From positions 52,813-72,812 of the forward strand of contig JALAGF010000153.1 in NCBI GenBank assembly GCA_030167865.1: 20,000 nucleotides of DNA, in the 5' to 3' direction. This document shows positions 861 to 20,000 of the stretch, one piece after another. This DNA comes from Craspedostauros australis. Its lineage: Eukaryota. Position numbers and translations under genes: made by a program. Below the pieces are notes generated by a model. That model had not been told where the DNA came from. It did no database searches and saw only the letters and a list, made by a program, of their open reading frames with translations. Each line of letters opens with the position of its first letter. Positions within the stretch are counted from its first letter, which is position 1.

Positions 861-3470
861 TCAATTAAATCGTATGCAATGCGTGCAGAAGCGATCCAGC
901 TGCTGACGCGAATGCGACACCATCATGATGGGCACCGCCCTTTCGATCAACGTCCGTTCCACGATCTTCGCTGTTGATTCGTCCAACGCGCTCATGCTTT
1001 CGTCCAACAGCAACACACGTGGTTGCATTGACAGCGCAATCGCCAAGGACATGCGCTGCGCTTCGCCACCGGACAGCGTAGACCATGGCTGGTCGAATGT
1101 GCCCTCCTCCATGCCCCATTTCGTGATGATATCGATCGGCGATTCTTCAGTGTGGTCTTGATGTGATTGTCCTTGTTTTGATGCAGATGGATGCTGTGAA
1201 GAGCTGTGGACCATCTTGTTCAGAAGCTGTTGGTGCCGTTTCCAACGACAATGGTGTTGAAACCTTGAGATTTCGTCCATGAGCATCCTGGGCGTTCCTT
1301 CGATGGTTGGTCGATTCTGAGACACGAAGCATACCTTCGTTCGGAACTCGGTATTCGAGAGTTCATGAGAATTCACACCATCCAACTGAACCCAACCATT
1401 CGTGCCGCCAGACTCCTCCAGTCCAACAAGCGTCCGCAGCAGTTGGGACTTTCCAGTTCCGGACTTCCCAACTATCCCAATGCGATCGCCAGTCTGGCAT
1501 TGGAAGGATGCTGTTGCGTTAGCTCGATGAATATGAAGATTTTGAGCTTGTAATACTGGAGTGGTGGCAGGTGATGGCGAAGTTATCGTTGATTTGGCAC
1601 TATCCTCGTGTTTCTGCAGAGCAAAGGCTTGAAGGGTGGTGGTAGGAGTTGTGCTTGGAAGAGTGTCGCCATCTTCTTCATGCTTGTCTGCTGCATCGTT
1701 GTCACTTACGTTGCTGCTTGACGAAGACGATGTCAACGTGGATGACGATGACGCTGATGGTGCTTGTCCATCGTTCCCTTTCCATTGCAACAAGCCTGAT
1801 CTCAGTCTGTCGTTGGGACGATCGATGAGGGCGCCTACAGCTGCCCTGACTACGAGCTGGACTGTCGTGCAGGCAGTTGCTGCGATCAAGAAGTTGATCA
1901 TGATTTGGTACGCTGCAGCTTGTCGAGGTGACTGTCCTGCCAAGATCTGCCCTGTCATCATGCCAGGGATGTGGACGATGCCTGTGACTGCAAGTCCGTT
2001 GATGGTGGGCGTCAACGCTGTGAGGAACGTATCCCGAATGAGAGGCAGCGTGGCCTCACCAGATGATGCCCCACGTGCGAGTCGCAGCTCGACTTCGTCT
2101 TGCCTTGTCGCAAACTGCTTGGTCAGGGTGGAGATACCCAGCGCGGATGCAGACAGCGTGTTGCCAAACAGCATCCCGGCCACAGGGATCCACGTTCGGG
2201 GCTGGAACCACGGCTCGATCACACCCAGCACCTTCAGGAACATCGCCAGCGACAACACCGTGGTGCCGCCGGCCAACACAGACGAGTAGATGTGGCGTCG
2301 GAGCTTCGGGTAGTCATATTGCACACGCGACAGTGCCTCGCGACTTGCGATACATCCGACCCCGACGATCCATGACAACACGAACAGCGGGTTGGAAGTT
2401 CCCATGATACGTTGCAGCACGACGCTGCCGAGCAACGACACTTGCAACGCGCACCGACTTGCTGACAGCAGCAACGATCGTGCCAGCGATGGCAGCCCGG
2501 AACTCCACAACGGTAGCACAGCAAGTCCTGTCAGCATCGTGGCAGCCGTGGCGAGGTTGCGGATCCCAAGTGCGTTGACGACGATCGTATCACTTGCAAC
2601 GGACGCTGCTTGGAGCGATGGTTCCACCGTGTTCGTTGCTGATGCTGACATTCGTGATGCGAATGGGGCTGCCCAGGAAGGCTGACATCGCATCAGCAAA
2701 ACGAAGCTCAGCACCAACGCGGATCTCACGATGCGTTCCTTGGTCTTCGACGGTCGTGACGGGCTTGCCGGCAGTGACCTTGCTTCTGTCTGAAGCCGAA
2801 GAAGTCTCAGACATATCCTTCTTGCGCTACGTCGATCCTTGCCATGCGGATAATGATCAGACTTATGACCTGTCGTGTGACTAGATCTATGACCACAGCA
2901 TCTTCTGACATGTGGGACCTTGTTATCCGCACCATCATGACGGCCACGCTTCCGAATCCATTGCGGGAAAGTCCAGGAACATTTTCCCAGTCTGGAACAC
3001 TTTCGGGATCTGATAAATATGGATATTGCCTTCCTCTCATGGTTCCTGGTGGGTGTTGGATGGGCTGTTGATGTGATGAAAGGGTGCGCGTTGGCTTGGA
3101 GAGAGTGGTGATCAGGATATGCAGAGGCATACCGCAGGCTTGAGGAACACTGATGAAGTTCCCGACGGTTTGGTTGATGATGTCCACGCGATTGGTGACT
3201 GTTCTTTTTGGACAAAATGGGAAGCGCCGAAGCACCTGGAACAACACTAACTAGTTCCAACCGTTTCGCGATGAGAAGCTGATCCACAAACAAGGACGCG
3301 CATGCGAGTACTCCCACGATCACAATCCATCGAGCCCGCCGCATCTTGATCTGGCGTTGACGCTGTTGAAGGCAACGGCGATTGAGCTGGTTGTGTTGAC
3401 GTTGCGGCATCTTGCTCGGTGAAAGGGGTGACGCGTGGAAAGTCGTGGTCGGCAGTGTCATCAGCAGCAT
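861..3470 (-). CDS. Fused ABC transporter: UPF0014 (FetB/YbbM/ALS3-STAR2-like) permease plus FetA/YbbL/STAR1-like ATPase, with long N-terminal extension
   Basis: One stop-free frame. Permease (~2590-1820) has UPF0014-type motifs RCALQVSLLG, WFQPRTWIPVAGMLFGN, EVELRLARGAS, PTINGLAVTGIVHIPGMMTGQILAGQSPRQAAAYQIMINFLI. ATPase (~1560-864) has Walker A GKSGTGKSQ, Q-loop FVSQ, signature LSGGEAQR, Walker B LLLDE, SALD and H-loop MVSH. Start uncertain (in-frame ATGs at 3674, 3470, 3410, 3344); a 5' intron cannot be excluded. Confidence 0.85.
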   Translation of the reverse strand: MLLMTLPTTTFHASPLSPSKMPQRQHNQLNRRCLQQRQRQIKMRRARWIVIVGVLACASLFVDQLLIAKRLELVSVVPGASALPILSKKNSHQSRGHHQPNRRELHQCSSSLRYASAYPDHHSLQANAHPFITSTAHPTPTRNHERKAISIFIRSRKCSRLGKCSWTFPQWIRKRGRHDGADNKVPHVRRCCGHRSSHTTGHKSDHYPHGKDRRSARRICLRLLRLQTEARSLPASPSRPSKTKERIVRSALVLSFVLLMRCQPSWAAPFASRMSASATNTVEPSLQAASVASDTIVVNALGIRNLATAATMLTGLAVLPLWSSGLPSLARSLLLSASRCALQVSLLGSVVLQRIMGTSNPLFVLSWIVGVGCIASREALSRVQYDYPKLRRHIYSSVLAGGTTVLSLAMFLKVLGVIEPWFQPRTWIPVAGMLFGNTLSASALGISTLTKQFATRQDEVELRLARGASSGEATLPLIRDTFLTALTPTINGLAVTGIVHIPGMMTGQILAGQSPRQAAAYQIMINFLIAATACTTVQLVVRAAVGALIDRPNDRLRSGLLQWKGNDGQAPSASSSSTLTSSSSSSNVSDNDAADKHEEDGDTLPSTTPTTTLQAFALQKHEDSAKSTITSPSPATTPVLQAQNLHIHRANATASFQCQTGDRIGIVGKSGTGKSQLLRTLVGLEESGGTNGWVQLDGVNSHELSNTEFRTKVCFVSQNRPTIEGTPRMLMDEISRFQHHCRWKRHQQLLNKMVHSSSQHPSASKQGQSHQDHTEESPIDIITKWGMEEGTFDQPWSTLSGGEAQRMSLAIALSMQPRVLLLDESMSALDESTAKIVERTLIERAVPIMMVSHSRQQLDRFCTHCIRFN

Positions 3471-3649
3471 GTGGGCTCGCGGAGCGCCTTCTTGGTGGCA
3501 GATGGATGTTTCCGTTGTTTTGTTTCGTTGTGATCTGTGACGTTGTGTTGTCTTGTGCGTGCGGAACACGCTGCAGCGGCGTTCTGGTGTGCAGAATCGT
3601 CGATCGTGGACATCAAGGATACGGCTTCGATCTGAGGATTTCAGGCATA

Positions 3650-3745
3650 TTGCAATGTATACATTTAATATCATTTTAAACAATATTTGATCAACAACTA
3701 TGTTTTTACCCCTTTAATCATACTTTCCCATACCCCATCTCATAC
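3650..3745. promoter_or_regulatory. AT-rich patch in the divergent intergenic region between the two ABC genes (candidate promoter region)
   Basis: catttaatatcattttaaacaatatttgatc... stands out from the GC-balanced flanks and lies between head-to-head genes. Function is inferred only. Confidence 0.35.
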
Positions 3746-4299
3746 TCGTGATTCGATGAGAACTGTTGGTGCAACAGAAATTGAAACGTGGTATTGCTTC
3801 AATGTGCTCGCCAACACCGCCGAAATTGTGTGCCAACGAAGAAGTCTGTGGAACAACTTGGTGAAGTGTGGCTCGCTTTGTCTCTCAGTCACGCTCTGCA
3901 CAGAGACGCCAACACCGACACGAACAGCAGCACCAACGGCGGCTTCAGCACAACCAATCGCAACAGCAATGCCCTGTGCGAGTAGCACGCCATCAGCAGC
4001 GACGTCCCCCTCCAACATCGTACAAGCAAGAGCGCACCAGCAACAGTAGCAACACCACCCGACACAGCCGCTGTATAGTACCATCGAGCAACGAAGAGAC
4101 CGAAGCACGTTTGCTTTCCGACGAGAGCTGTGCCAGTAGGAGATCATTGCTTTTGAAGCGTTGTTGCTGTTGCTCATCCCTTTGCGAAGTTGCACAATTG
4201 CAGATCATCATTTGCCACTCATAAAACCAGCTCGCGCAGCAAGCTCAGCCACAGTAACGACACCACGAAACAGCACACACAAAAACATTCCAGCAAGCC

Positions 4300-7200
4300 A
4301 TGAACGATCCAACCAAAGGTGACAACACCGAACAGCTGCCCGAAGTGGCCAAGCCAACCACAGCCAACTTCGATGACAAGACTGACAAGACTGACAACAA
4401 TGACAAGGACAAGGACAACAAGAAGGATGACAAAGCTGCGGACGCTGGTCCGATGGCGACCATCTCAGAAGTCTTCAGCTTTGCCACTCCTCCTGAGAAG
4501 ATCAAGATCTTTGCTGGGCTGATCTGTGCGTCTGTGTCCGGTATCGTGGTGCCCTGTAAGTGATCAGGGAGTGTCGAAACAGGCAGAATCGAGTCCGGTG
4601 CAAACGTGAATCGACTGGGCGCACGTTGGTGTTGTTCATTGACGCAGCATTCCAATGGCAGTGACGAGCAGACAACGTGAGAACCTGCACAAGTCAGTGT
4701 TGTTGCCGAGTATTGTACTCTGCAAGTATACGCACACCTCACAGCTGACAGGGCTGAATACCACATGACACCATCTGACATTGCTTCAATCTCCACCATC
4801 CTATCCAATGAATCATTCGCTTCCCCAACAACCCAATCCAACATGCATGCATTCATGCACACAGCCATGGCGTTCTTCTTCGCCCGCATCTTCGAGGATC
4901 TTTCCTCCGACCCGTCATCCTCTGACTTTCTCAAGAACATTCGAACGCTGGCCTTCAGTTTCATGATTCTTGGGGTGGTCATCTTTGCATCCATGTCGAT
5001 GCAGGCCGCCCTGTTGGAAACGGTCGCAGGCGAGATGACCAAGAGGATGCAACGCTCTTGGTTCGAAGCTGTGTTGCGCCAGGACATGGCGTACTTTGAC
5101 ATCAAGGACGTGTCAGGCACCGCCACCATCATCTCCACGAACGGCAAGAAGTTCAAGAAGTACGTCGAATGTGCGTTTGCGTATTAAGCCTTGCTTGTGT
5201 GCTCATCCCGGTTCGATGGCAAGATCATCGTCAGTTGTCTTGTATCTGTTGACAACTAAACCATGTCCATGTTGTTCATCTCCATGCATTCACCCGCAAC
5301 CCATTTCTTACCAATTCAATCAACCAATCAATCCTCCACATCAACACACCGACACACCAACACAATTCATTTTGCTCGCTCATTCGCTTGTTGCATCCCA
5401 TTTGACCATCAGAGGAGTCGGAAGGAAGCTCGGAGAAGGCATCCAATACATCGTCACTTTCTTTGGCGGCATCATCTTTGCTTTCGTCCAAGCTTGGCGT
5501 GTCAGTCTGCTTGTTCTTTGCATCGTGCCATTCATGGCCGTCTGCACTGGATTCCTCCTCAAGGTCAACCAGACTGAGACAACTCGCAAGAATGCTGGAT
5601 ACGCCAAGGTCGGCGCCATCGTATACACAGCCGTCTCATCCATCCGCACCATCCTCTCTTTGAACGCCGTCGAAGACATCGTGAGCGAGTTCAAGGACGC
5701 GACCCAAAAATCATACGAGGCCTCTTCAAGCTTCGTCGTCTGGGTCGGGCTCGCCAATGGATCTGTCATGGGATCCTTCATCTTGGCCTACATCCCTGTC
5801 ACTCTCTACGGATCCTTCGTCCTGTACGACAACGTGAAAGACTCCGGTTGCGACCCATCCGGCGGCGTATCTGATAACTTCACCTGCGACCCTGGTGCCG
5901 CAGGAGTCTTTGGAGCCCTCATGGGTATCACCTTCGCGGGTGCCGTATTGCCCCAGATCTCATCCACCATTGAGGCGTTCACTGGAGCACGAGTTGCCTG
6001 CTTCCCTGCTCTGGAGGCCATGAACCGCCAAGTCGGGGCTGATGTAGCAGCATCGAAGCAGGAAATGGACGAGAGCAACAAGTCCACTTCTCATCAGCGC
6101 AGAGGCAGCGTGGCGAAGCTCCCAACCTACGTCATCGACTCTTCATCCGATGAAGGTTTGAAACCAGACAAGGTCGTTGGTGACATCGAGTTCAAAAATG
6201 TTGACTTCGCGTACCCAACACGCGACGAGATCAACGTGTTCGACGGATTCTCTTTGAAGATCGAGGCTGGAACAACGGTGGCTCTTGTCGGGCCCAGGTA
6301 CGTGGCAGTTTCCTAACCGTGCTGCTTTTCTCGTCGTCACTGTTGCCATCGCAACAACATGACTACCTCCACGTTCGCAATGCGCCATCATCACTCCCAC
6401 ACGTACTCACTGGCCTCGTTTCTGATCCGCTTGTTGCGCAATTCAATGTCTCGCTCAAACCGCTCTTCTTGGAACTTGTCAACCTTCGCCTTCTTTTTCA
6501 TTCAATTGTTCACTTGTTCGTGCAACAATCAAACCAAACCAAACCAAACCAACGAACTCACGCAAACATAACAGTGGAAGGTAAGTGTGAATCGAATACG
6601 AAGCTGCGCACGCGCCTGTCTGTGGAATCCATCCCCTTTGGCAACTTGTCTGCTCCACGGCTGCTCCTTCCAATCTCACCAAAAAAGTTTTTGCTCATTT
6701 GCCCTTCCTACTCGTCCCTGTTTCCGTCTACTTTGCGAATTGGAAATGGACAGTGGAAAGTCGACGACGGTCCAGCTGATTGAGCGGTTCTACGACCCCA
6801 AGGCTGGTTCCATCACCCTCGATGGCAACGAACTCACCCAACTCAACGTCAAATGGCTCCGCCAACACATGGGGCTCGTAAGCCAGGAGCCAAAGCTGTT
6901 CGCCACAACCATCAAGGAGAACATTTCTGTCGGCATGCCAAATGCAACCATGGCCGACATCGAAGATGCCGCGCGCAAGGCCAATGCGCACGACTTCATC
7001 GTCAGCTTCCCAGATGGGTATGAAACTCAAGTTGGAGACCAGGGAGCGCAGCTCTCCGGAGGTAAGTCAGCCAACCATCCGAAAGTAGTGTCCTGCTCTG
7101 CTTCCACTCGCTTCAATACGGCTCGTTCGCCATGCTCAACTGCACAGTATACACTTGGTTGGCATCTGCCACTTCTTGGAATTCCTCACACACGTACCAT

Positions 7201-10200
7201 ACATGCACACGCACATGGACACGCACATGGACACGCACATGAACACGCATACGTCTCCTCCACCTCTTCTCCTCCATGTCCCATCTTTGCATCGTTGTAT
7301 TGATGCATCAAATGAACGCACCATACGCGCCCGTACAGGCCAAAAGCAACGTATCGCCATTGCCCGCATCTTGATCAAAAAGCCAAAAATTGTCATTCTT
7401 GACGAGGCCACAAGGTAAGCCCAATCACGCTCCGCCATGTTCATACAATACCTGCTGCATGAATACGCTGGAAGTCTGACCTGTTGTTTACCGTACACAA
7501 CATTGTCTGCTTGCACTCTCTCGCTTGTTCCACCGTGGCACGACATCACGATCATGCAAAACTCATCCTTCCTCCCTCCCTACTTCCCTCTCTTCCTCTC
7601 TGCCCCCTTCAACCACAGTGCCCTGGACAGCGAATCCGAGGCCGTAGTCCAAGAGGCGCTCGATAAGCTGATGGAAGAAGGCAATCAGACTGTGGTCGTC
7701 ATCGCTCACCGGCTGTCAACCATTCGAAATGCTGACATGATCGTCGTTGTCAACGAAGGAAAAGTCGCGGAGACCGGTACGCACAGCGAACTGATCGAGA
7801 AGCAAGGAAAGTACTACGACCTCGTCGAGGCGCAGAAGGGTAACAAGGGCAAGGATGATGAATCTTCGTCACAGAAGACCGATAGCACGCACACCCGCAC
7901 GAGCAGCACGCTGGATGGTGTCGAGAATGAAGATGGAGATGATGCCATCGAAGTGAGCGCTGTGCTTGACGAGAAGTTGGAAACACCCACCGACAGTCCG
8001 CTGCTTCGTTTTCACGGCGTTCACTTTTCATACCCATCGCGCCCGGACAACAAGATCTTCCGCGGTTTGAACCTCGATGTCTACGAAGGAGAGACGCTCG
8101 CTATCGTCGGACCAAGGTAAGCGGAACCAATGCAATGGTTCGTAGCACCATTCGGCACAGTATGAGTGCATGCATGGCTACATGCAAGTGGTCACGCACA
8201 GAGATGAAATCGCATTCCTGCCCCCGAACTTGCTCCCATTTGGGCCACGCGGACTTTGTCAACAAGCGAGACGATGATGTGCCACGTTCTCACTTTCCTC
8301 TCGCCTCGCGATTTTCCATCACAACTCGCACACACCATATTTCGCAACCACTCATCTCCGTTTCACAACACAGTGGCCAAGGAAAGTCCACCATCATCCA
8401 GCTCTGTGAGAGCTTCTACCGCCCAAGCAAGGGCGCTGTGGAGTACTGCGGCGTCGACATGGCCGACCTGAACGTCAAGTGGCTTCGCCAGCAGTTTGGA
8501 CTTGTTAGTCAGGAACCCGTCCTTTTCGATGTTAGCATTGAAGAGAACATCCGCTTTGGGTCCAAAGACGTTTCCGAACAAGACGTCATCAAGGCCGCCA
8601 AAGAAGCCAACGCGCACGATTTCATCATGTCCTTCCCCGACGGATACAATACCGCGGCAGGAGGGGCCGGCTCTTCACAGATTTCAGGCGGCCAGAAGCA
8701 ACGTATTGCCATTGCGCGAGGTGAGTGAAAAAGATTCGGTGGACCATCGTTGCGAGTAAATGAAACTCCCTCTCGTGTATTCGATTTCGTTCACCTGTGC
8801 AGTCGTACAGTCGCCTGTTTTTCTTTGTTCTCTCATACTTACCGCCGGCCTCCCTGTGCCGCTGCTGCAACTTGCAAATTCCCGACGTCCTTAATCTCGC
8901 AGCTCTCATCAAGAAACCCAAGATCCTACTGCTGGATGAAGCCACATCGGCGCTCGACAGCGAATCCGAGAAGGTTGTGCAGGCTGCACTAGACAGCATC
9001 ATGTCCAGTGCTGGCCGTACCACTATTGTGATCGCCCATCGCCTCTCGACCATCCGCGATGCCGATCGCATCGCCGTCATCGACAACGGCAAGGTCCGCG
9101 AGATCGGGACGCACGATGAACTGATGATGAAGCCAAACGGCCGCTACAAGCGTCTTCAAGACTTGCAGAATCTCGATCAGGATGTCAAGAAATCCAAGAA
9201 GAAAAAGGACGATGACGATGATGATGCGGACGAAGAGCATGCCGATGACAAGGACGATGGCACCGACGAGAAGGAATCCACTGAGGAAGACAAGAAGAAC
9301 GAACAGCTCCGAGCGAAACGGGCACGAAGCTTCGCCAACCAGGACGTCATGTTCTTTGTGATTGGAAGTGTCGGTGCGGTCTTCGCCGGGTTGCTCTTTC
9401 CAGGATGGGGTGTAAGTTTCTGAGCGGCAATACAATGCGATGCCATGCCATGCTACTAATATGGCATGCTTCATCGTTGCATGATGTTGTTGGTGGAAGT
9501 TTCCTTGCAACTGAGCTGCTGATGGTGGTCGCGACTTCGTGGTGTTTGCCCATTGGGGGAGAATCTTGTTGTGTGCGTCCATCCTGAACCATTCGCTCGT
9601 ATCAACATGTGAATACTGACAAACATCGTTTCCCTGTGTTCTTGCCCCTCGCTCCTTCAGCTCGTCTTTGCGTACATGGTGGAGTTGCTCTACACACCAA
9701 TCGAACGATGCGACGAGTCTGCTGGTATCTTCCCTGACGGAAACATCACAGACTGCCAGGAATACTTCGACGACGAAGCTGATGATATGAAGGAATTGTC
9801 CATCAATGTGTTCATCGGGGTCATTGGAGTCATCTGTTCGTCGCTTTTTGGCAACGTCCTCCTCTTTTATGGATTCGGAACAGCGACGGAGCGCATGAAC
9901 AAGCGCGTCCGCGACAGCACATTCGAAAGCCTCGTGCGTCAAGAGGTCTCGTGGTTCGATGTCCGCCCCGTGGGAGTCATCACCTCCCAGATCTCCGATG
10001 ACGCTGCCATGATCCATTCCTTTTCCGGTGAACCAATCCGCACCTTGGTGATGAACTGCGCAAGCGTGCTGGTCGGGCTGGTCTTCGCCTTTTACTACAT
10101 GTGGTACGTATCGAACACTATGCTGTGTCACGTTGGTCGACGCTGTGATGTTGTGTGTGGCCTTGCGATCTACGGCGCTGCCCTCCCCATTCCGAATGCG

Positions 10201-10947
10201 GGGCTTGTAATGATTTTTGTCGCTGAAAGGGCGGTGGGATGCTCAGGCGTCGACTTGCTCGCAGTTCCATTCAAACCCCATGCTCCCACAATGACGGCGC
10301 ACTCGCTTACATCGAACATACTCGTATCGTTCCACTCCATCGTTTTCTCACGCCCAATCGTTTCGGAACGCTATCCTCACACGCTCCTTCCCCTGACACT
10401 AACGAACAGGCCATTCGCATTGATGACCCTCGCCATCTTGCCGTTCATGGCATTTGGAGCGGAGGCAGAGATGGCCATGTACCTTGGAGAAGACGAGGGT
10501 GACGAAAGCGCATTCGATGAGAATTCCAGCGGAGGCATCGTCGTCGAAGCCTTGATGAATATTCGGACGGTCGCATCACTCGTCGTTGAGAAGGACCGTC
10601 ATGAGCACTACGCGACGGCGTTGGAACATGAGCTCCCCAATGAATTCGCCAAGAACTTCGTGAAGGGAAGCACCGCCGGCTTGGGTCAGTTCGTCCAGAT
10701 GTGGGGAATGGCCTTGATGTTCTGGTGGGGCGGATGGCTGCTCAACAACTACAGCGGCACCTTCGAGCTCCGCGACTTCCTCATCTCCATGTTCACGTTC
10801 CTTTTCTCTCTGTCCGGTCTGAGCTTTGCCATGCAGGGCATCACCGACCGCGTCAAGGCGAACAAGGCGGCCGAGCGCATCTTCGGGTTGATCGACCGAG
10901 AGAGTTTGATCGACCCACTCAGTGACGAAGGCAAGAAGCTCAATTGA
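4300..10947 (+). CDS. Full-size ABCB (MDR/P-glycoprotein-like) transporter, 11 exons, ~1386 aa, domain order TMD1-NBD-NBD-TMD2
   Basis: Exons 4300-4555, 4865-5159, 5413-6297, 6575-6580, 6754-7061, 7339-7414, 7619-8116, 8374-8720, 8903-9411, 9661-10103, 10410-10947. All introns are GT-AG and the exons total 4161 nt (1387 codons including stop). Motifs: TMD1 [12 protein letters not shown]1 [60 protein letters not shown]2 [57 protein letters not shown]2 [29 protein letters not shown]. Confidence 0.93.
6531..6550 (+). repeat. (AAACC)4 microsatellite in ABCB intron 3
   Basis: aaaccaaaccaaaccaaacc, ending about 24 nt before the micro-exon. Confidence 0.85.
6575..6580 (+). other. 6-nt micro-exon (TGGAAG) of the ABCB gene
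   Basis: Flanked by acceptor ...ataacag (to 6574) and consensus donor gtaagt (6581). Joining AG|TGGAAG|TGGAAAGTCGACG restores Walker A G-P-S-G-S-G-K-S-T. Confidence 0.88.
7201..7250 (+). repeat. 12-bp tandem repeat (ACACGCACATGG-like, ~4 imperfect copies) in ABCB intron 5
   Basis: acatgcacacgcacatggacacgcacatggacacgcacatgaacacgcat. Confidence 0.8.
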
Positions 10948-11234: not shown

Positions 11235-12563
11235 TCACGAGTACGGGTTGATCAAATCAAAGACCACATCTTGTGTCTTGCCACCGAACATGCACTCCAT
11301 GACTGTCTCGGTATGCCCCACGTCCTTCAAGACGTGACACTGGATATCCTTGCACCTAACCCCGACGTCGCTGCTCTCATTGTGCTGCAGCAATGCCTGC
11401 GCAAACTTGTTCGATGCCGAATACGGCACCACCATGTCTTCCGCACCGTGGACGAAGTACATCGCTGGCAGCGTCATGTCGGAGTGAGATGTCTGAACGA
11501 TGCATGTAGGGGAACGACGATTCCAGTTGTCTATCGTGTAATGGTTCGCAGGAATCAACGGCGAGATCTGATCCAAGCCTCTGCCAACCTCGAAGAGCTG
11601 ATGATCCTCCACATGGTACAAGCCGGAGAGTCCGATGAAGCTCTTCACGTTCGCGCGCGATTGGTGCGGCTGATTCAACAAGGCCAACGAGGAAACTTGG
11701 CATCCTGTCGAATGCGCCATGAGAACGATCGGAGATGATGGATATTTGGATTGAATCGCTTGCAGCGACGCCGCGACATCATCGGCCTGACCATCGACGT
11801 CGGTGTCCGGGTACGTTCGGTAACCTACGATTGCAACTCGACATCCACGTTCCAAGCCAGGCTTGGCCAGCAATCGGTACATGGCCGGGAATCCAGAAAA
11901 CCAAGCTCCGCCATGGACAAAGACCATCGTCTTTGGTGGTTGCTGGTGTGTGTCAGCGGCCTGTGGTTCCCAAACATGCATGACCTGCTTGGCATGAGAT
12001 CCGTACCGTATCGCCTCGTATCCGCCGAATTTGGTTACATCCGTCGCATCCGTCGAATCCACCAGCAGACTTACGAGGAAGGACGGCACTCCCGACAACT
12101 GCAGGAACGTTTCCCACGATCCTGGATGTTGCTTCAGCACGGCCGGTCCAGCAGAAATGTACGTCAAGGAATCGACGAGGAACCTCAGCACGCCGAGGTT
12201 GCAAATGGCGTTCTGAAACCAAACGGGTGCGTTGTCGCGAAAGTTGCGAAACCCATCGTCGTCCGGGTTGGCTGCGGGGTCCGCGGGCGGAGGAATCTGA
12301 TCGAACGAGAAGGTCGGATCCAGGATGTTGCTCGTTGGCGCTGCGTCGCAGACACGCACGTCGATGTCGGCGCACGCCTCATCGGTTGCCGTCGCAGTGG
12401 AGCGGATCCGCCATGGACATCGCCTTGTCGATGACGGCGATGGGTACATGTCGTGACGAAGAACATAATGAGCCCCGCTTCTGCCGCTCCACGCTTGGCA
12501 TGTTGGAAAGCGTGACCACAGCACACCAGCCAACGCCACAAAACGCGGCGCCTTTCCAAGCAT
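11235..12563 (-). CDS. Alpha/beta-fold hydrolase, isoprenylcysteine methylesterase (ICME)-like/HSL-type esterase, 442 aa, apparently intronless
   Basis: Oxyanion motif FVHGGAW, GYRTYP, nucleophile elbow AHSTG, FIGLSGLY, candidate acid in HGAEDMVVP and candidate catalytic His in VGHTETV. The N-terminus is signal-peptide-like. Substrate assignment is by resemblance only. Confidence 0.85.
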   Translation of the reverse strand: MLGKAPRFVALAGVLWSRFPTCQAWSGRSGAHYVLRHDMYPSPSSTRRCPWRIRSTATATDEACADIDVRVCDAAPTSNILDPTFSFDQIPPPADPAANPDDDGFRNFRDNAPVWFQNAICNLGVLRFLVDSLTYISAGPAVLKQHPGSWETFLQLSGVPSFLVSLLVDSTDATDVTKFGGYEAIRYGSHAKQVMHVWEPQAADTHQQPPKTMVFVHGGAWFSGFPAMYRLLAKPGLERGCRVAIVGYRTYPDTDVDGQADDVAASLQAIQSKYPSSPIVLMAHSTGCQVSSLALLNQPHQSRANVKSFIGLSGLYHVEDHQLFEVGRGLDQISPLIPANHYTIDNWNRRSPTCIVQTSHSDMTLPAMYFVHGAEDMVVPYSASNKFAQALLQHNESSDVGVRCKDIQCHVLKDVGHTETVMECMFGGKTQDVVFDLINPYS

Positions 12564-12759
12564 TGTTGTTCAGCCTGCAACTGAGACGTCAGTGCTCGTA
12601 GTGGCTGTTGAGGTTGTTGTGGGGAATCTGCATTGTGGGTTGTGCGCTGTCGATGTGATGTTGTTGCCAGCGCGGATTGAAACGAGGAACAAAGAACATG
12701 GATGATTTCTCTCCCGTTCGGGCCAACGTCATTGTTGAGAAGATATTCCGTAGTTGCGT

Positions 12760-12830: not shown

Positions 12831-13100
12831 CGTTGCATCCACGGTCGCCAATTCTCTCCGTCATTTCTTTTTGCGTGGCGGAAGTTCATCCTTCGCTCCG
12901 TTGCGGCAATGCCCGCGGAACGTGTGGCACCAAGACAGGTTCTGGATCATTTGTGTCGTTCTACACGCATGGCAATGTTCTACTTACACTATATTATATT
13001 ACATCACATTTGTACATTTATATCCCCAGAGAGCGTTCCACTTGTATCCATTGCACTGAACGCTCGTGAACATGGATATGGACCTGGACATTCCCGCATT

Positions 13101-16100
13101 TTACTGCGGAAAGACGCAGTAGTCAGAGTTTCCATTCAGATTCCCCTTGCACCCTGGAATGTCATCTCCCGCGTCACGTTGATAGCAAATCAATCCCTCC
13201 TCGCAATCGGCATCCTTGTCACAGTCTCCGGCGCAGCGCGACATGATCACGTCGGGATCTGCACCAAAATCAATGATCTGCAAAATGGGAACTGCGGTCG
13301 GTGAAGCCGTAGCCGATGTGATTGGACTTGGTGTCGGTGCTGAGGTGGCAGATGACGTTGGCTTCGATGTCGGCGCTGCCGTCGGTGCTGCGGTTGGGGT
13401 CGAGGTGGGAGATGACGTTGGCTTCGATGTCGGCGCTGAGGTCGGCCGCGACGTTGCGCGTGCTGTGGGAGCGATGGACGGTGCGCTTGTTGGGTTCTCT
13501 GTGGACACCGTATCCTGTTGGCCATCGATAGGCGCTTCAGTAGGGGCGGTGTAGTCGGGGTCGATCACGCAATAATCGGAGTTGCCATTCAGATTCCCGG
13601 TACAACCTGGAATCGCGTCACCGGCGTTGCGTTGGAAGCAAATCAGCCCTTCTTGGCAGTGAGAATCCTTGTCACAGTCTCCTCCGCAACGGGGCATGAT
13701 CACATCGGGATTTGCGCCAAAGTCCTGGATTTGCAGGATTGGAAGAGGGGTGGGAGAATTGGTCGGTGACTCTGCCTGCTGGATGGTCGGAGACTGCGTG
13801 GGGTCGTCAGTTGGCTCCGTGGTAGGGCTGGATGTTGGTTTTGAGGTTGGAGCCGACGTTGGTGATGATGTTGGGCTGGATGTTGGCTCCGTGGTAGGGC
13901 TGGATGCTGGTTTTGAGGTTGGAGCCGACGTTGGTGATGATGTTGGGCTGGATGTTGGCTCCGTGGTAGGGCCGGATGTTGGTGATGAGGTAGGACTTGA
14001 TGTTGGGCCGGATGTTGGTGTTGATGTAGGACCTGATGTCGGGCTGGCTGTGGGACCAACCGTTGGATTACCTGTTGGAGCTGGTGTCGGGTTCGAGGTT
14101 GGCGCCGCTGTTGGGTTCCGTGTTGGGCCTGTGGTAGGGCCTTTGGTAGGGCTCGAGGTCGGTCCCGACGTTGGAGCTGATGTCGGGCTCGAGGTTGGCC
14201 CTGCAGTTGGCCCTGATGTCGGGCTTGAGGTTGGTCCTGAGGTTGGGTCAGCTGTTGGATTCCCTGTCGGGCCCGCCGTGGGGTTCGAGGTTGGTCCGGT
14301 TGTTGAACCTGACGTAGGAGTGCCTGTCGGACTTGATGTCGGAGAAGCGGTTTCGCTTAATCCTGGTGACACTGTTGGCGCCTCCGTCGGACCCATCTCC
14401 GTGGGTGCCGCAGTGGGCGCGACGTAGTCGGGATCTGTGACGCAGTAGTCTGAGTTACCGTTCAGGTTGCCGAAACACCCTGGAATCTCCTCGCCCGCGT
14501 CACGTTGGAAGCAAACGAGTCCTTCCTGACAGTCGGCATCCGTGTCACAATCCCCTGCGCAGCGAGGCATGATCACGTCAGGATTAGCGCCGAAGTCCTG
14601 AATCCTCAGAATCGGCTCTGCGGTTGGTTGACCCGTCGGAACTGGAGTCGTCGGCTCCGTTGGAAGTGTCACCGTTCCGTCCGCACCGGCAGGTGAAAAT
14701 GTCGGAACAAGGGTGGGAGATACCGTCCGTGTTGGGATTGATGATGTTGTGCGCGTTGGCATGCTGGTTGGATGCTGTGTCGGTGACAGGGTCGGCTGGT
14801 GGGTCGGCGACGATGTTGGCGCGAATGATTTCGTGGGCGACATGGTCGGGATCGCAGTCGGAAGGCGCGTGGGCAATGAGGTGGGGCTCAACGTCGGCGT
14901 GGCCGTGGGATGACGTGATGGTTGCATGTTCACAGTCGGTGATGCGGATGGTACCAAGGATTCCTCGTCCGTGCACGGTCCTTCCAGCTTGGGCACGAGC
15001 GTAGGATCTGGGACACAAAAGTCTGAATTGCTCTTCGTGTTCCCGATGCATCCCGTCATCTCATCGTCTGCATCGCGCAGCAGGCAGATCAATCCCTCCT
15101 CGCACTCGTCGTCAATGTCGCAATCGCCCTGGCATAGCTGCAGCGGAAAGTTGATTGGATCTGGTTCACCTCCCAGATCATCCACGTGCACCCATTGCGT
15201 TGGGTCTTCCATGTACGTTGGCCTCCCGAGCTGCGAGGCGCACGTTGGTGTTGACGTTGGGATGGACGAGGGTTCCGCCGATGGGACGAGCTGAGGCGCC
15301 ATGGTTGGCTCGGTCCGAAGCGAAACCGGTGGCTTACTTTCCGCGTAGCCGTCCGAGGCGCAAAATCCGATCTCGCCGTGGAACGCTCGGTCGTTGACAT
15401 AGTAGGAGTACGAGTTGGAGCTGACGGAGGTGAATGCGCGTCCGTAGTACATGCGGAAGGGACAGCTCGGGCAGGACTGCGTGTTGGATGGATGCACGAC
15501 GCCACTGATGGACGACGTCTCGGTGGACCGGCCGTTCGGTGTGTCGATGCGGAAGGCGATCAAAGTCCCCTTCTTGGCCACGATGAACTCGTCGAATGGA
15601 GGCAGTTCTGTCAACGTGTCGGGTCCCTGACCTCGCACCGACACGCTCTGGACTTGTCGCCACTCCGGATAGTCGCGGAATGTGCTGTCGGCGACGTACA
15701 CATCCACATCCGTCATTCCTGTCGTCTGCACGTAGAGCTTCAAATCCCGGATCGTCGTGTCCTCGAGGATGTCGACGTCGAAGTGAAACGAAACGATGTT
15801 GTCACCTGCCAGGTAGAAATCGGACGTATCCTTCCAGCTCGCGCACGTGAGCTTCGTTGGCGACATCGTGGGCTGCGCCGTGATGGTTGGAGCAGGCGAG
15901 CCTGTGGGCGGGGCCGTGTCTGATGCGATGGTGACGAAAGCGCAAGAATCGGCGGAGGATGGATTCTCGATCTGAGCGACACGGATGTGGATGGGGCTCA
16001 TGATGCTCGGGTCCACCGAATCGATGGTGAAGGTGTCGCCCTGTCGCATACGAGCCTCCAGGTAGGAATCCTGGAATCCAGTGCCGCTATCGGGGGTGCT

Positions 16101-18057
16101 CGTGATGAGAACCCGGTTTCTGCCCTCGTTAGTGTGTGAATTGAAGCCGACGGCGTGGTTGAAGTTGATGTAGTAGTCGTCGTTCCAATTCGGCGTGTTG
16201 ATCTTGATGAGAACAACGAACGAGGACGTGTCTCCATTGGGATCGTAGTTCACGACTCCACAAATCCAACCAGCATAGTTCTCATTGGCTTCAATTTCAA
16301 TCGCCTGGTTGGAGTACCACCCCGTGTTCCAGCTCTTGTGGCCTGCGTCAGGTGATACGTACGTGAATATGTTTGTGAAGGAAGATATGGATCGTGAGGC
16401 ACATGTGAGAGTGATTTGCCAATGCTGACGGCGGATCGCACATTTCGTGATGATGTGAACTTACCATTGAAGGCTTTCTTCTCTTGTTGAACTCCAGACA
16501 GGGTGTACGAATTTCCCATGATTCCACTGTAAAGAGAGAAAGAACAAATGATTTGTGAGACGGGTTTGGTCTTGCGTTGCGGCACAATACAATGTCATTG
16601 CATGTATTATAGAATGCCGCACTTACCTCAAATCATTACGAGTGCCACGTTCGTCATTGGAATGGAACATTCCAAAGTTGTGCGCGATCTCGTGAAGGAT
16701 GGTGGCAACGTGGAATGCAGAATGTCCGTTGGTTCCGACCTCGTTGTACATGGACATTTTGCCTCCGGGTCCGACACGTGCATAGGCTGTGATGAACAAA
16801 CGAATAAGTGAGTGAGTGAAGGCACGGCGACGATCCCCGATGCCACAACGATCCATCACGATACGTACCATACCAATTCGACGACCCGCTCTTGCGCGAT
16901 CCGTACGGCAGAACGCACAAGACATGATCGAATTGGCCGTAGAGACCAACCGATCGCAAATGATCCTTGATCTGATCTTCAAAGTCTTCCGTCTCTTTGC
17001 CTTGAATCGTCGTGGAAATGCGATAATCGTAAATGCCGTCTTTGACGTTGCCCACAGTTTTGGTGGTGAACTGCAACTGGCCGTACGAAATGGCGGCGGC
17101 CTGCGTGATGAAACTGGGAGTCGAAGAGAGCATCTCGGACCGGATATCGGCCTCCGAGATCGCGCCGTCATCAAAGATGGCACGCACAATGACAAAGTCG
17201 CGTTGGCCGATGGCATCGGGCGTTTGTCGCAGTTTCCGCGCAGTTTGCGGGGTGTCAATGAGCATGTCGTGGATCGTGGCGCCTTGTGGCAACTGCAAGC
17301 GATTGAGATGCAGTTGGATGCGCGCGTTGGCAAGGAAGAGGGTTGTGGAGTGAATGTCCAGCTGGTGTGATTGCACCCACTTGGTATCCAATCCCCGGAT
17401 GTGCAAATGATGGGCTCCGTGAAGTTGCTCGTCAATGCCTTGCAAGGCGCATGTCACAGTTGCGTGGTGGTGGTGGGCATTGTTGCTAGTGTCGGTGTTG
17501 TCGTCGTCGGAAGGGTAAAGAATGGTGTGTTCCATGCTCAATTGGCAAGGTTCCTGGAGGATAAGGCTGCGATTTCTATGGCCCTTGAGCGAAGGTGAAT
17601 TGTGCGAAATTGAAGCAGATGGTTTGGAACGATCAATTGTGACAATCGTCTCCTCCTCTGTGGATTGGTCCGCGAGATTGCGATGCTGCTGTGTATGGTG
17701 TGATAGTGATGATGATGGCGTTACATGATTGATGACGATGCATCGAGAGAAGCAAGAAATGAGGTGATTCCACGATAAGGAATGGTGTGAGTATCGTGTG
17801 CGCATGGATGATGTTTGAAGTGTTGATGACCTCACATATTCGAGATGCACTCCAATCGCAGAACATGGAGCAATGTGCTGCATGGAACTTACAGCGGATC
17901 CGCCTATCCGACGCCCAGTGGATGCAGCTGCAGTGCCGATGCATGCAGTTGCTACCAGGAGCAGACTGCAGCAGACGACCTTCCATGCTGCCGAAGATGA
18001 TTGCATTCGTGTGATTCTGTGTGAGGATGGGCGCGTGGCCAACGTTGATGGTGCCAT
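13101..18057 (-). CDS. Secreted gametolysin-like (peptidase M11) zinc metalloprotease with C-terminal PT-rich spacers and four frustulin-type ACR repeats, ~1480 aa
   Basis: Proposed exons (minus strand) 18057-17893, 17688-16869, 16786-16627, 16526-16465, 16342-13101. GT-AG joins give NWY|AYARVG...HEIAHNFGMFHS (HExxHxxGxxH)...DL|SGIMG (Met-turn)...KAFN|GHKSWNTGWY. Signal peptide VVCCSLLLVATACIGTAAA. The first intron (in-frame, 204 nt) and the start (18057 or 18006) are less certain. Confidence 0.87.
13104..13286 (-). repeat. Frustulin-type ACR domain, copy 4 (C-terminal)
   Basis: ILQIIDFGADPDVIMSRCAGDCDKDADCEEGLICYQRDAGDDIPGCKGNLNGNSDYCVFPQ, then stop. Confidence 0.8.
13558..13739 (-). repeat. 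Frustulin-type ACR domain, copy 3
   Basis: ILQIQDFGANPDVIMPRCGGDCDKDSHCQEGLICFQRNAGDAIPGCTGNLNGNSDYCVIDP. Confidence 0.8.
13740..14425 (-). repeat. Coding minisatellite: (PTxx)n mucin-like spacer with 12-bp period and a 72-bp higher-order tandem duplication
   Basis: Translates to PTSSPTSGPTAGPTSSPTSAPT... A 72-bp unit beginning ttggctccgtggtagggc recurs at 13811, 13883 and 13955; the first two copies differ at one base. Confidence 0.9.
14430..14612 (-). repeat. Frustulin-type ACR domain, copy 2
   Basis: ILRIQDFGANPDVIMPRCAGDCDTDADCQEGLVCFQRDAGEEIPGCFGNLNGNSDYCVTDP. Confidence 0.8.
15003..15194 (-). repeat. Frustulin-type acidic Cys-rich (ACR) domain, copy 1 (most divergent)
   Basis: LQLCQGDCDIDDECEEGLICLLRDADDEMTGCIGNTKSNSDFC; 6 Cys; exact match to the C-E/Q-G-D-C-D frustulin core. 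Confidence 0.8.
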
Positions 18058-18432
18058 CGTGATTGTGATTGTCTGCGATTGCAATTTGTGAGGAGAGTGA
18101 TCTCTTTGCTGAAGGATGCGAGCGATTGATGGAAGCAGCTGATGGACGAGCTGGTCTTCGTTGCTGCCGCTGTTGTTGACGCTGGTGATGATGCCAAAGC
18201 CGTGGGGACCTTCGATTTGTGACTGTTGCGTTGAGGTTGTTGGGCGTGGATGAAGTTGTCACGCTGCGATGTCACACTCGCACAGTGCCTCCTCTGCTGT
18301 TATGGCACGCTATACTGCATGCGCTGCGAATCGTGTTGCGTTGCAATGAGCATCCGATGTGGTCTTTCGTCGATGTCCGCCCTCGCTTTGCTCGCTCTTG
18401 TGTTGCCCTGTCGACTGAGTTGCCTTCTTCGT

Positions 18433-18476
18433 TTGGCTTTGCACTTCGTTTTGCGCTTGGCTTTGCGCTTGGTTGG
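18433..18476. repeat. Short imperfect 12-bp tandem repeat upstream of the protease
   Basis: ttggctttgcac-ttcgttttgcgc-ttggctttgcgc-ttggttgg. Confidence 0.6.
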
Positions 18477-20000
18477 CCTTCGTTTTGGTTGATCAGTGAT
18501 GTGTTGAGATGGTGGAGTTGGTCTCTCTCTCTCTTCCTTCCTTTCCCTCCAGGCATCCATGCACTTGTCCGAGCGCTATTCGCAGTCCCTGGTGGTCTTC
18601 GGTGAAAGGGTGATCTCTCCGTTCACCTCTTTCTTCGTCCATCTGATTGTCGGATTATCGTAAACACCCACGTGAGCTCTTTTCGCGTTTCTTGATTGTC
18701 GTTTTGTTGGTTGTCTTCGTTTGGCATCGGCAACTCGGGAATTTGGTGGGGAGGACAATTTGCGTCACCCATCCCTAAAATTGTGACCAACTTTAGCAGG
18801 ACTCTGGCCGAAAATTTGAAGCTATTCCTCATGTCTTAATATAATCAATGCTTGTTTGCCCGTCAACGGAAAAACTCAAATAAGTATTTTCGGTCAATGT
18901 CATGCTTCCACATGGTGATTAGATGCCGCAATGGCGCCAAACCAATCAAGACCCACGCTCCTTACAAGTTCGGAGTTGCAAGAACTGCATCATGGGTCGT
19001 GTGAAACACTCAGCTCTGCGACATGTTACGAGAAGTTGCAACGTCTGTCTACGAGCAGGACAGCGATTTGTTTCCACCACTTCGCCTTGACGGGATCTCG
19101 GACAAGCGCAGCGAAGCGTCGGCGCCTGCAGAGTTGCGCAGGCAGGTGGGAAAGCTGCCACGCGATACTCTACCGCCCATTCGCCGAGTCTCCTGTGCGA
19201 TACAGATGTTGGAGGAAGGATAGAGAGACGGCAACTCTCTGTCCAAATGGGAAGCTTGGATGGGAAGAGCCGGTCATGCGATAACCAGGGGTGATACCAC
19301 TGGTACAGCTAGAGTAGATGATGGGTCAGAAAGGACGAATCGGAGATCAAGATGTTGAAATATATCACAATACTCTACGAGACTACACTCGTGATGCAAC
19401 TAGACGAGGGAGAGACCAGTTGCATAGTATAGTAGCGTCCAGAGAGCGGAGGGCGATAGAGAGAGAGCTCTACTCGTATCTTGAATGGTGCCTGTCGCAG
19501 GACGACCTACGTCCGTCACCCTTTGCGAAAGGGTGATGCTCTGCGACAAATCCGAAGCACATTGGTGTTGCAACCTGGATGGAACTTGGCGATGACCCCA
19601 GAAAATGTGAGCGCCAAAGATACCTGCAGGATCGAAATCATTTGTGTGGTGGGAGTCGATCACTCATCCACCACCATGTGCTGTGATTGCTGTCGTTCTT
19701 GTAGATTCCAATGCAAATGCATGGCACCACAGCACTCCATGTGATTCTGCTTGGGGCCCAATGCCATGCTATGTCCAGCAACACGATGCCATGTGCCAAT
19801 GGTCCCATCACATGTCATTGCTCACTCGTATCGTGCTCGCCACCGCCTACCGATGTCTGGACTCCGAAATGTAGAGCTGGACGCTGCCGAAGTTCAGTTG
19901 ACGAACCTCCTCCACTGCAAAGAAACCAGTACCAGTGCGAGAATTGTCATCCTCGTTTGACTTCCCACCACCAACGTTGTTTCCCTCCGCATCACACTCC

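Follow-up and report, generated by a model that had tools for sequence, protein, structure and literature searches.

What might a gametolysin-like protease do when four modules of the kind that build the frustulins of diatoms are fused to its C-terminus? The question is raised by a minus-strand gene in a 20,000-nucleotide (nt) stretch of DNA of Craspedostauros australis (contig JALAGF010000153.1, positions 52,813-72,812 of the forward strand), hereafter called the window, to whose positions all coordinates refer. The locus is an intact diatom nuclear gene which is predicted to encode a modular ecto-protease. The best explanation of this protein, which we hold with slightly more confidence than doubt, is an M11-type ecto-protease tagged with frustulin-type ACR modules and held in the cell coat, with export, processing and Ca2+ tethering presumed.

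Three-frame translation, together with the DNA at the frame changes, gave a gene of four exons from 18057 to 13101, which when joined comprise 4653 nt and encode 1550 amino acids (aa), the sole stop codon being the terminal one. These limits are exactly those of the original prediction, and every sequence feature which that prediction had listed was recovered at the same positions of the minus strand. The parts of the gene are the following.

13101..18057, minus strand: whole coding region, start to stop codon (stop codon 13103-13101; spliced frame open)
18057-16869, 16786-16627, 16526-16465 and 16342-13101, minus strand: exons 1-4
16787..16868, minus strand: intron 1, 82 nt, GTACGT..CAG
16527..16626, minus strand: intron 2, 100 nt, GTAAGT..CAG
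16343..16464, minus strand: intron 3, 122 nt, GTAAGT..CAG
17689..17892, minus strand: candidate fifth-exon intron, in frame, 204 nt, GTAAGT..CAG (GC 0.446; GC at third codon positions, GC3, 0.41)

The gene model is supported by the alignment with two full-length relatives (P0040 and P0054), which runs free of gaps across all three splice junctions. The C-terminal half of the protease domain, whose alignment to P0040 and P0054 extends from GHKSWNTGWY... to ...FVTIAS, is encoded by exon 4 along with the four ACR modules, and because this half shares one uninterrupted exon with the whole array, the linkage of protease and ACR tail is independent of splicing. On this gene model, the one join between protease and tail that depends on predicted splicing is that of the exons encoding HExxH to exon 4. 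A further in-frame intron at 17892-17689, absent from the original prediction, is probable and would give five exons; the segment has the only strong donor consensus of exon 1, the exon GC3 of 0.51-0.75 compares with its 0.41, and the 68 residues that it encodes have no counterpart in the homologues P0040 and P0054. This candidate intron sits directly behind the part coding for the signal peptide and, if real, would leave a protein of 1482 aa with QHRNL close after the signal peptide.

The protease part of the protein is described by three features.

15918..17205, minus strand: M11-type catalytic domain, residues 285-612, interrupted by introns 1-3 (match to P0040; PF05548 via P0040; rank-3 cluster of the Atlas search)
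16662..16694, minus strand: zinc-binding motif HEIAHNFGMFH (H428, E429, H432, H438), aligned with HEIGHNLNLHH and HEVGHNLGYGH in relatives
16514..16628, minus strand: SGIMG, putative Met-turn, whose codons span intron 2 (SGAMG in P0040 and TGTMG in P0054 aligned there)

The three zinc histidines and the catalytic Glu are all intact and conform to the HExxHxxGxxH pattern that serves as a criterion of M11, and SGIMG lies 11 residues past HEIAHNFGMFH. The intact metzincin site announced in the original prediction (HEIAHNFGMFH plus GIMG) is indeed present, and both of its elements are conserved in P0040 and P0054. For SGIMG we assume the Met-turn role known generally from metzincins; a sequence search of the PDB found no M11 structure. 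Spliced residues 285-634 match residues 148-496 of P0040, a 791-aa protein named as from Chaetoceros tenuissimus, over about 350 residues with an expectation value (E) of 5.8e-35, and P0054 with an E of 7.1e-25, within a set of 120 proteins. P0040 itself passes Pfam PF05548 (E 3.5e-13, 49.7 bits against a cutoff of 21). A language-model search of the Atlas with the final 127 residues encoded by exon 1 placed at rank 3, with a score of 0.93, a diatom cluster named gametolysin M11, of whose members 11% carry PF05548; ranks 1 and 2 were taken by unnamed clusters, the few recorded members of which are mostly from diatoms (rank 1) and haptophytes (rank 2). These data support a metzincin of the M11 lineage (gametolysin-type), its predicted membership being transitive via P0040. 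The M11 identity given in the original prediction is supported indirectly, by way of the match of the spliced catalytic part to this PF05548-passing relative (5.8e-35); it found no backing in the direct search of the exons with the Peptidase_M11 hidden Markov model (0/10). M11 peptidases have been reported in diatoms and brown algae and not in oomycetes (PMC8035641). The family is expanded in C. tenuissimus and numerous in some diatoms (PMC8613185).

The C-terminal part of exon 4 is a regular alternation of modules and linkers.

14997..15194, minus strand: ACR module 1, CQGDCD...MTGCIG, 70.1 bits
14622..14996, minus strand: Pro/Thr/Ser linker, 125 aa, 58% Pro/Thr/Ser
14424..14621, minus strand: ACR module 2, CAGDCD...IPGCFG, 71.0 bits (AlphaFold predicted local distance difference test score, pLDDT, 88.3)
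13749..14423, minus strand: Pro/Thr/Ser linker, 225 aa, 72% Pro/Thr/Ser, with DNA tandem repeats
13551..13748, minus strand: ACR module 3, CGGDCD...IPGCTG, 69.5 bits
13296..13550, minus strand: Pro/Thr/Ser linker, 85 aa, 64% Pro/Thr/Ser
13104..13295, minus strand: ACR module 4, CAGDCD...IPGCKG, 68.0 bits (the protein ends 4 residues past the last Cys)

Each module has 6 Cys, all 24 of which are intact, and 10-17 acidic (D+E) against 2-4 basic (K+R) residues, and both CxGDCD and [IM][PT]GCxG are found in all four repeats. In an alignment of ten ACR sequences, 15 columns are invariant, with all six Cys among them (C, G, D, C, D ... G, C, G are shared with other diatom proteins). When scored with an ACR profile made from 66 modules of other proteins, the four modules of the window reached 68.0-71.0 bits, a match beyond chance given that none of 200 shuffled versions of the protein exceeded 3.4. 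Published ACR modules carry the hexapeptides CQGDCD and VPGCSG, and alpha-frustulins link them by Pro-rich domains (PMC4712521). The linkers here are 53, 125, 225 and 85 aa long with 45-72% Pro/Thr/Ser, and the Pfam PT repeat is matched on exon 4 (E 5.4e-22). The four 6-Cys CxGDCD repeats split by Pro/Thr/Ser-rich spacers, as originally described, were found again by this independent profile. Their identification as frustulin ACRs agrees with both published hexapeptides and with the profile scores, and the assignment of the repeats to frustulin-type ACR modules is supported by their predicted sequence. Single-exon and sub-domain scans returned no Pfam family for the ACR module.

The longest linker contains a DNA tandem repeat at 13810-13995 (period 72, 2.6 copies, 94% matches), and another lies in a linker at 13342-13461 (period 60, 83% matches). 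Such repeats suggest recent expansion, and linker length would then probably vary between strains. On the plus strand, Gly/Val/Asp-rich open reading frames (ORFs) over 13186-14913 (e.g., 13663-14427, 254 aa) mirror the coding of these PT linkers; they were rejected as genes, being mirror readings of the Pro/Thr/Ser repeats.

At the other end of the protein, two features bear on export and activation.

17920..18057, minus strand: predicted signal peptide starting at Met1 (18057) or Met18 (18006), with the hydrophobic core WKVVCCSLLLVATACIG followed by an AAA/S boundary (hydropathy)
17230..17238, minus strand: R-K-L (R274-L276), likely RXL-type pro-peptide processing site (R-D-L aligned there in P0040 and P0054)

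Residues 21-47 contain the sole 19-residue window with a Kyte-Doolittle mean above 1.6, and at this setting no second hydrophobic segment was found in the 1550-aa protein. This pattern is consistent with a signal peptide at the N-terminus and with the lack of a membrane anchor, so that the combination proposed originally, a signal peptide without a C-terminal transmembrane anchor, agrees with this lone hydropathy peak, hydropathy being the one measure used. The motifs RNL and RKL both occur in the protein. ARKLRQ stands directly upstream of the region that aligns with the M11 relatives, and the pro-region had been thought to end near ARKLR, which the R-D-L of the relatives at the same alignment position strengthens. 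The N-terminal 280 or so residues are otherwise poorly conserved relative to the relatives. The RXL motif is a cleavage site in diatom wall proteins (PMC4557024, PMC5501833), and we infer that RKL would be cleaved by the diatom RXL endoprotease. An R-x-L shortly before the M11 catalytic domain is conserved in three diatom proteins (the window protein, P0040 and P0054). This conservation suggests that such proteases may themselves be activated by the diatom RXL endoprotease.

From these elements the following course can be proposed. The protein would enter the endoplasmic reticulum (ER), an RXL endoprotease would remove the pro-peptide at RKL, and the mature enzyme would then be exported. The ACR array would bind Ca2+ and thereby hold the enzyme in the Ca2+-bridged organic frustule coat, extractable with ethylenediaminetetraacetic acid (EDTA), which is the home of the frustulins. 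The PT linkers, probably O-glycosylated, would act as extended stalks, with the zinc protease head reaching protein substrates at the cell surface; these may include coat proteins, adhesive or other secreted proteins, and external peptides. ER entry, zinc endopeptidase activity, Ca2+ binding and coat residence are proposed here from knowledge of the families, and the stalk role from the anatomy of the protein. Frustulins reside in the EDTA-extractable frustule coat (PMC4557024), their ACR domains bind Ca2+ (PMC4712521, PMC4557024) and a fusion of Frustulin1 to the green fluorescent protein was seen at the cell surface (PMC4712521). By analogy, wall tethering of the window protein is plausible.

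To what extent the fusion of an enzyme to ACR modules is particular to this gene was addressed with a profile from the ten-sequence ACR alignment, which retrieved, out of 1.84 billion cluster representatives (clusters at 50% identity), 4436 at E<=1e-3; of these, 2289 reached <=1e-10 and 474 reached <=1e-30. Partner domains were counted by Pfam among the best 150 of the 4436 representatives (P0121-P0270); many of these 150 are probably fragments, and the counts are therefore lower bounds. The enzymes on ACRs comprised PhoX (2), carbonic anhydrase (1), GH75 with GH16 (1), GH99 (1), Trypsin_2 (1), Peptidase_S8 (1), Astacin (1), Metallophos (2) and Methyltransf_FA (1). Other partners were F5/8C, PKD, TSP1 and LRR domains among others, and the carboxypeptidase-inhibitor families were matched by one protein each. 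Three of the best 150 start with the M11 C-terminal subdomain: P0263 (E 5.7e-12, 4 ACRs), P0127 (3e-09, 8 ACRs) and P0243 (3.2e-07, 4 ACRs), all of which look like N-terminally truncated ORF calls beginning where exon 3/4 of the window gene begins. A metagenome scan with P0263 gave 35 loci, all of them matching its ACR/linker part only. The word-index search with exon 4 returned 155 matches, mostly to low-complexity PT repeats; among the 120 listed, 6 had CxGDCD and 2 had HExxHxxGxxH, and the matches included the ACR-bearing PhoX-like proteins P0006 (Cylindrotheca closterium) and P0008 (Fragilaria crotonensis) and the carbonic anhydrase P0009. With exon 1 the same kind of search against longer proteins found no homologue.

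As far as these predicted proteins tell, the ACR is a promiscuous module, found on PhoX-like and purple-acid-type phosphatases, carbonic anhydrase, glycosidases (GH16, GH75, GH99) and members of four protease families, and the fusion of M11 to ACRs is recurrent, not unique. ACR-tagged ectoenzymes are a widespread habit of diatoms and apparently an undescribed class; no description of protease-ACR or enzyme-ACR fusions, or of a class of ACR-tagged enzymes, was found in a literature search whose coverage was mostly outside subscription journals, among which are the original frustulin papers. The breadth of these enzymes argues for general surface display and not for a dedicated wall-remodelling device, and general display of ectoenzymes at the cell surface would be the most economical reading of the sequences. 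In the original prediction the tail docks the protease in the coat, where it could loosen the casing during division, gamete release or auxospore formation, or process adhesive trail material; this functional reading is plausible and probably too specific. A wider proposal can also be made, in which the ACR array would be a general Ca2+-dependent display tag for ectoenzymes (phosphatases, carbonic anhydrases, glycosidases and proteases of at least four families), the M11-ACR proteins would be autolysins resident in the coat, turning it over or opening it when cells separate or gametes are released, and a knottin-like core of the module may add resistance to foreign proteases; we consider it tentative, with a modest chance of being right as a whole.

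Several observations weigh against a coat-held M11-type ecto-protease. Glycosylation and RXL cleavage are inferred, as are localisation and the binding of Ca2+. PF05548 was scored on single exons and not on the spliced protein, and it was matched by none of the 10 exon-wise translations, even at E<=1 or <=10, these being contiguous translations of a domain split over four exons; the HExxH stretch gave only sub-threshold matches to Astacin, M10 (Matrixin) and Reprolysin (E 0.03-0.06). The second relative, P0054, had no PF05548 match at E<=0.01, which leaves M11 membership transitive through one relative, P0040. When proteins of 220-700 aa were searched by word index with one ACR, no candidate with three words in common emerged, and no named frustulin was aligned. 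The window protein has neither the Trp-rich/ricin-B end nor the polyglycine of canonical frustulins, and if it is the Trp-rich/ricin-B domain that binds the wall, the ACRs alone may not anchor. Finally, public sequence records gave a single match to the locus, a 313-nt contig of uncertain kind from the 3' end (100% identical to 13025-13337, no splice joints) whose RNA label is a guess, and no RNA record was found for the locus.

This last result would be expected of a silent, decaying or mis-modelled locus, an open frame from which no protein is produced, and the poor conservation of the N-terminal 280 residues points the same way. We nevertheless regard such a locus as very improbable, since the 4653-nt frame has no internal stop, the splice sites are canonical, all catalytic residues and the 24 ACR cysteines are intact, and exon GC3 is high against a low GC in the introns. 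If the protein is made, it could instead be freely secreted, the ACRs serving as Ca2+-stabilised, disulfide-knotted spacers or binding modules (e.g., for substrate recognition) or as inhibitor-like modules with a knottin/WAP-like core. The lack of a membrane anchor and of a Trp-rich/ricin-B domain is in agreement with free secretion, as is the fold suggested for the module. The AlphaFold model of the ACR, built from a 70-sequence alignment (pLDDT 88.3, predicted template-modelling score 0.76), resembles inhibitor-cystine-knot peptides only, and weakly so. Foldseek gave a best E of 0.52 and nothing significant, with spider inhibitor-cystine-knot toxins in the top rows (template-modelling score 0.67-0.70 by target length); VIA-align gave Z<=3.2, with 22 of 48161 chains at Z>=2, nearly all of them knottins. 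The ACR profile against PDB sequences had as its best match a spider knottin (E 0.013), no single stretch being significant, and many ACR proteins show partial matches to the WAP motif, again with no single stretch passing, in addition to the one protein for each carboxypeptidase-inhibitor family. A three-disulfide knot as the core of the ACR is, on this model, a lead and no more. The fold matches lie below any significance threshold, the WAP matches cover only profile positions of about 7-29 of 41, and frustulins, whose ACRs are the same module, reside in the wall (PMC4557024, PMC4712521), so that free secretion appears rather unlikely to us.

A protein that does stay in the coat could also be a dedicated autolysin of the gametolysin type, stored or tethered there and activated at mating, gametogenesis, auxospore formation or daughter-cell separation, when it would digest the proteinaceous coat. 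The M11 lineage speaks for this, and a tail whose modules are those of the coat proteins could carry the enzyme to its substrate. In Pseudo-nitzschia multistriata, expression of an autolysin-annotated gene is reported to be raised 1 h after the start of the sexual phase, and the same paper recalls that gametolysins of Chlamydomonas cleave the cell wall (PMC8769554). However, ACR tags are also found on phosphatases, carbonic anhydrase and many other enzymes that have no connection with the lysis of walls, and the large number of M11 genes in some diatoms (PMC8613185) stands against one dedicated role. We judge a dedicated autolysin to be quite unlikely, and keep the coat-held M11-type ecto-protease as the preferred explanation.

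Between the protease and the repeats the protein has one more domain, which had been missed in the original prediction.

15354..15851, minus strand: Cys-bounded beta-rich domain, about 165 aa, residues 635-800, between protease and repeats

It holds a CPSCP motif and is separated from the protease by a short PT linker. No Pfam match was found at E<=10, no relative by phmmer among 270 fetched proteins, which included the other M11-ACR proteins, and nothing below E 0.4 among PDB sequences; its single-sequence AlphaFold model (pLDDT 44.6) was too poor for a structure search. Elsewhere in the window lie three neighbouring genes with no evident link to the protease.

864-3713, minus strand: UPF0014 permease fused to an ABC ATPase
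4245-10947 (about 4.2-11 kb), plus strand: multi-exon ABCB-type transporter with ABC_membrane domains
11238-12569, minus strand: alpha/beta-hydrolase (BD-FAE/Abhydrolase_3)

Upstream of the start codon (18058-20000), no ORF of at least 140 aa lies wholly within the interval.

Frustulins have so far been regarded as structural proteins of the coat whose function is unclear. If ACR arrays anchor, they would constitute a natural surface display of diatoms for nutrient-scavenging, carbon-concentrating and proteolytic enzymes, they would provide concrete candidates for the proteases behind the processing or opening of the organic casing, and the biotechnological display on frustulins (PMC4712521) could make use of a minimal tag. 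If they are not anchors, a family of 4436 clusters is still in need of a function. Survey work scores the secreted metalloproteases of diatoms as single-domain proteins (PMC8035641), a consequence of the ACR module having no Pfam model.

How does the protein compare with the systems from which its parts are known? With gametolysin and other M11 proteins (the gamete lytic enzyme of Chlamydomonas, the VMPs of Volvox and the M11 genes of diatoms) it shares the layout of a secreted pro-enzyme, HExxHxxGxxH and the Met-containing SGxMG, whereas the middle domain and the C-terminal ACR array are additional. Its relatives P0040 and P0054 have PT repeats but lack the CxGDCD module; the window protein has both. 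The comparison with frustulins (alpha1 of Cylindrotheca fusiformis, epsilon of Navicula pelliculosa and 1-11 of Fistulifera solaris) was made by their published description (PMC4712521) and not by direct alignment with a named sequence. A putative signal peptide is shared, as are several acidic modules with 6 Cys and both hexapeptides, each about 50-60 aa long, and, with the alpha-frustulins, Pro-rich linkers (PMC4712521); three of the five features of the frustulin criterion in that paper are formally present. In contrast to frustulins, polyglycine is absent (no run of at least 4 Gly), the C-terminal Trp-rich/ricin-B-like domain is missing (the last 200 residues hold 0 Trp, and Ricin_B was not matched), and a 600-aa protease and a middle domain stand before the repeats. 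The Trp-rich domain of the Fistulifera frustulins is ricin-B-like (PMC4712521), and a C-terminal Ricin_B_lectin match follows the ACRs in 4 of the best 150 ACR representatives (2 above the Pfam cutoff and 2 below), which indicates that the profile family includes canonical frustulin architectures. As predicted, the window protein is an ACR-bearing enzyme and not a frustulin in the strict sense. It resembles the ACR-tagged enzymes (the PhoX-like P0006 and P0008, the carbonic anhydrase P0009/P0151, the Trypsin_2 protein P0155, the subtilase P0180, the astacin P0188 and the M11-like P0263, P0127 and P0243), which in this comparison are predictions, many of them truncated ORF calls, and which share an enzyme, PT linkers and 2-8 ACRs; the order of the modules varies, the ACRs of the PhoX and carbonic anhydrase proteins being N-terminal to the enzyme. 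The M11 peptidase and the frustulin ACR are each known already, and their predicted fusion is, by our literature search, a new combination.

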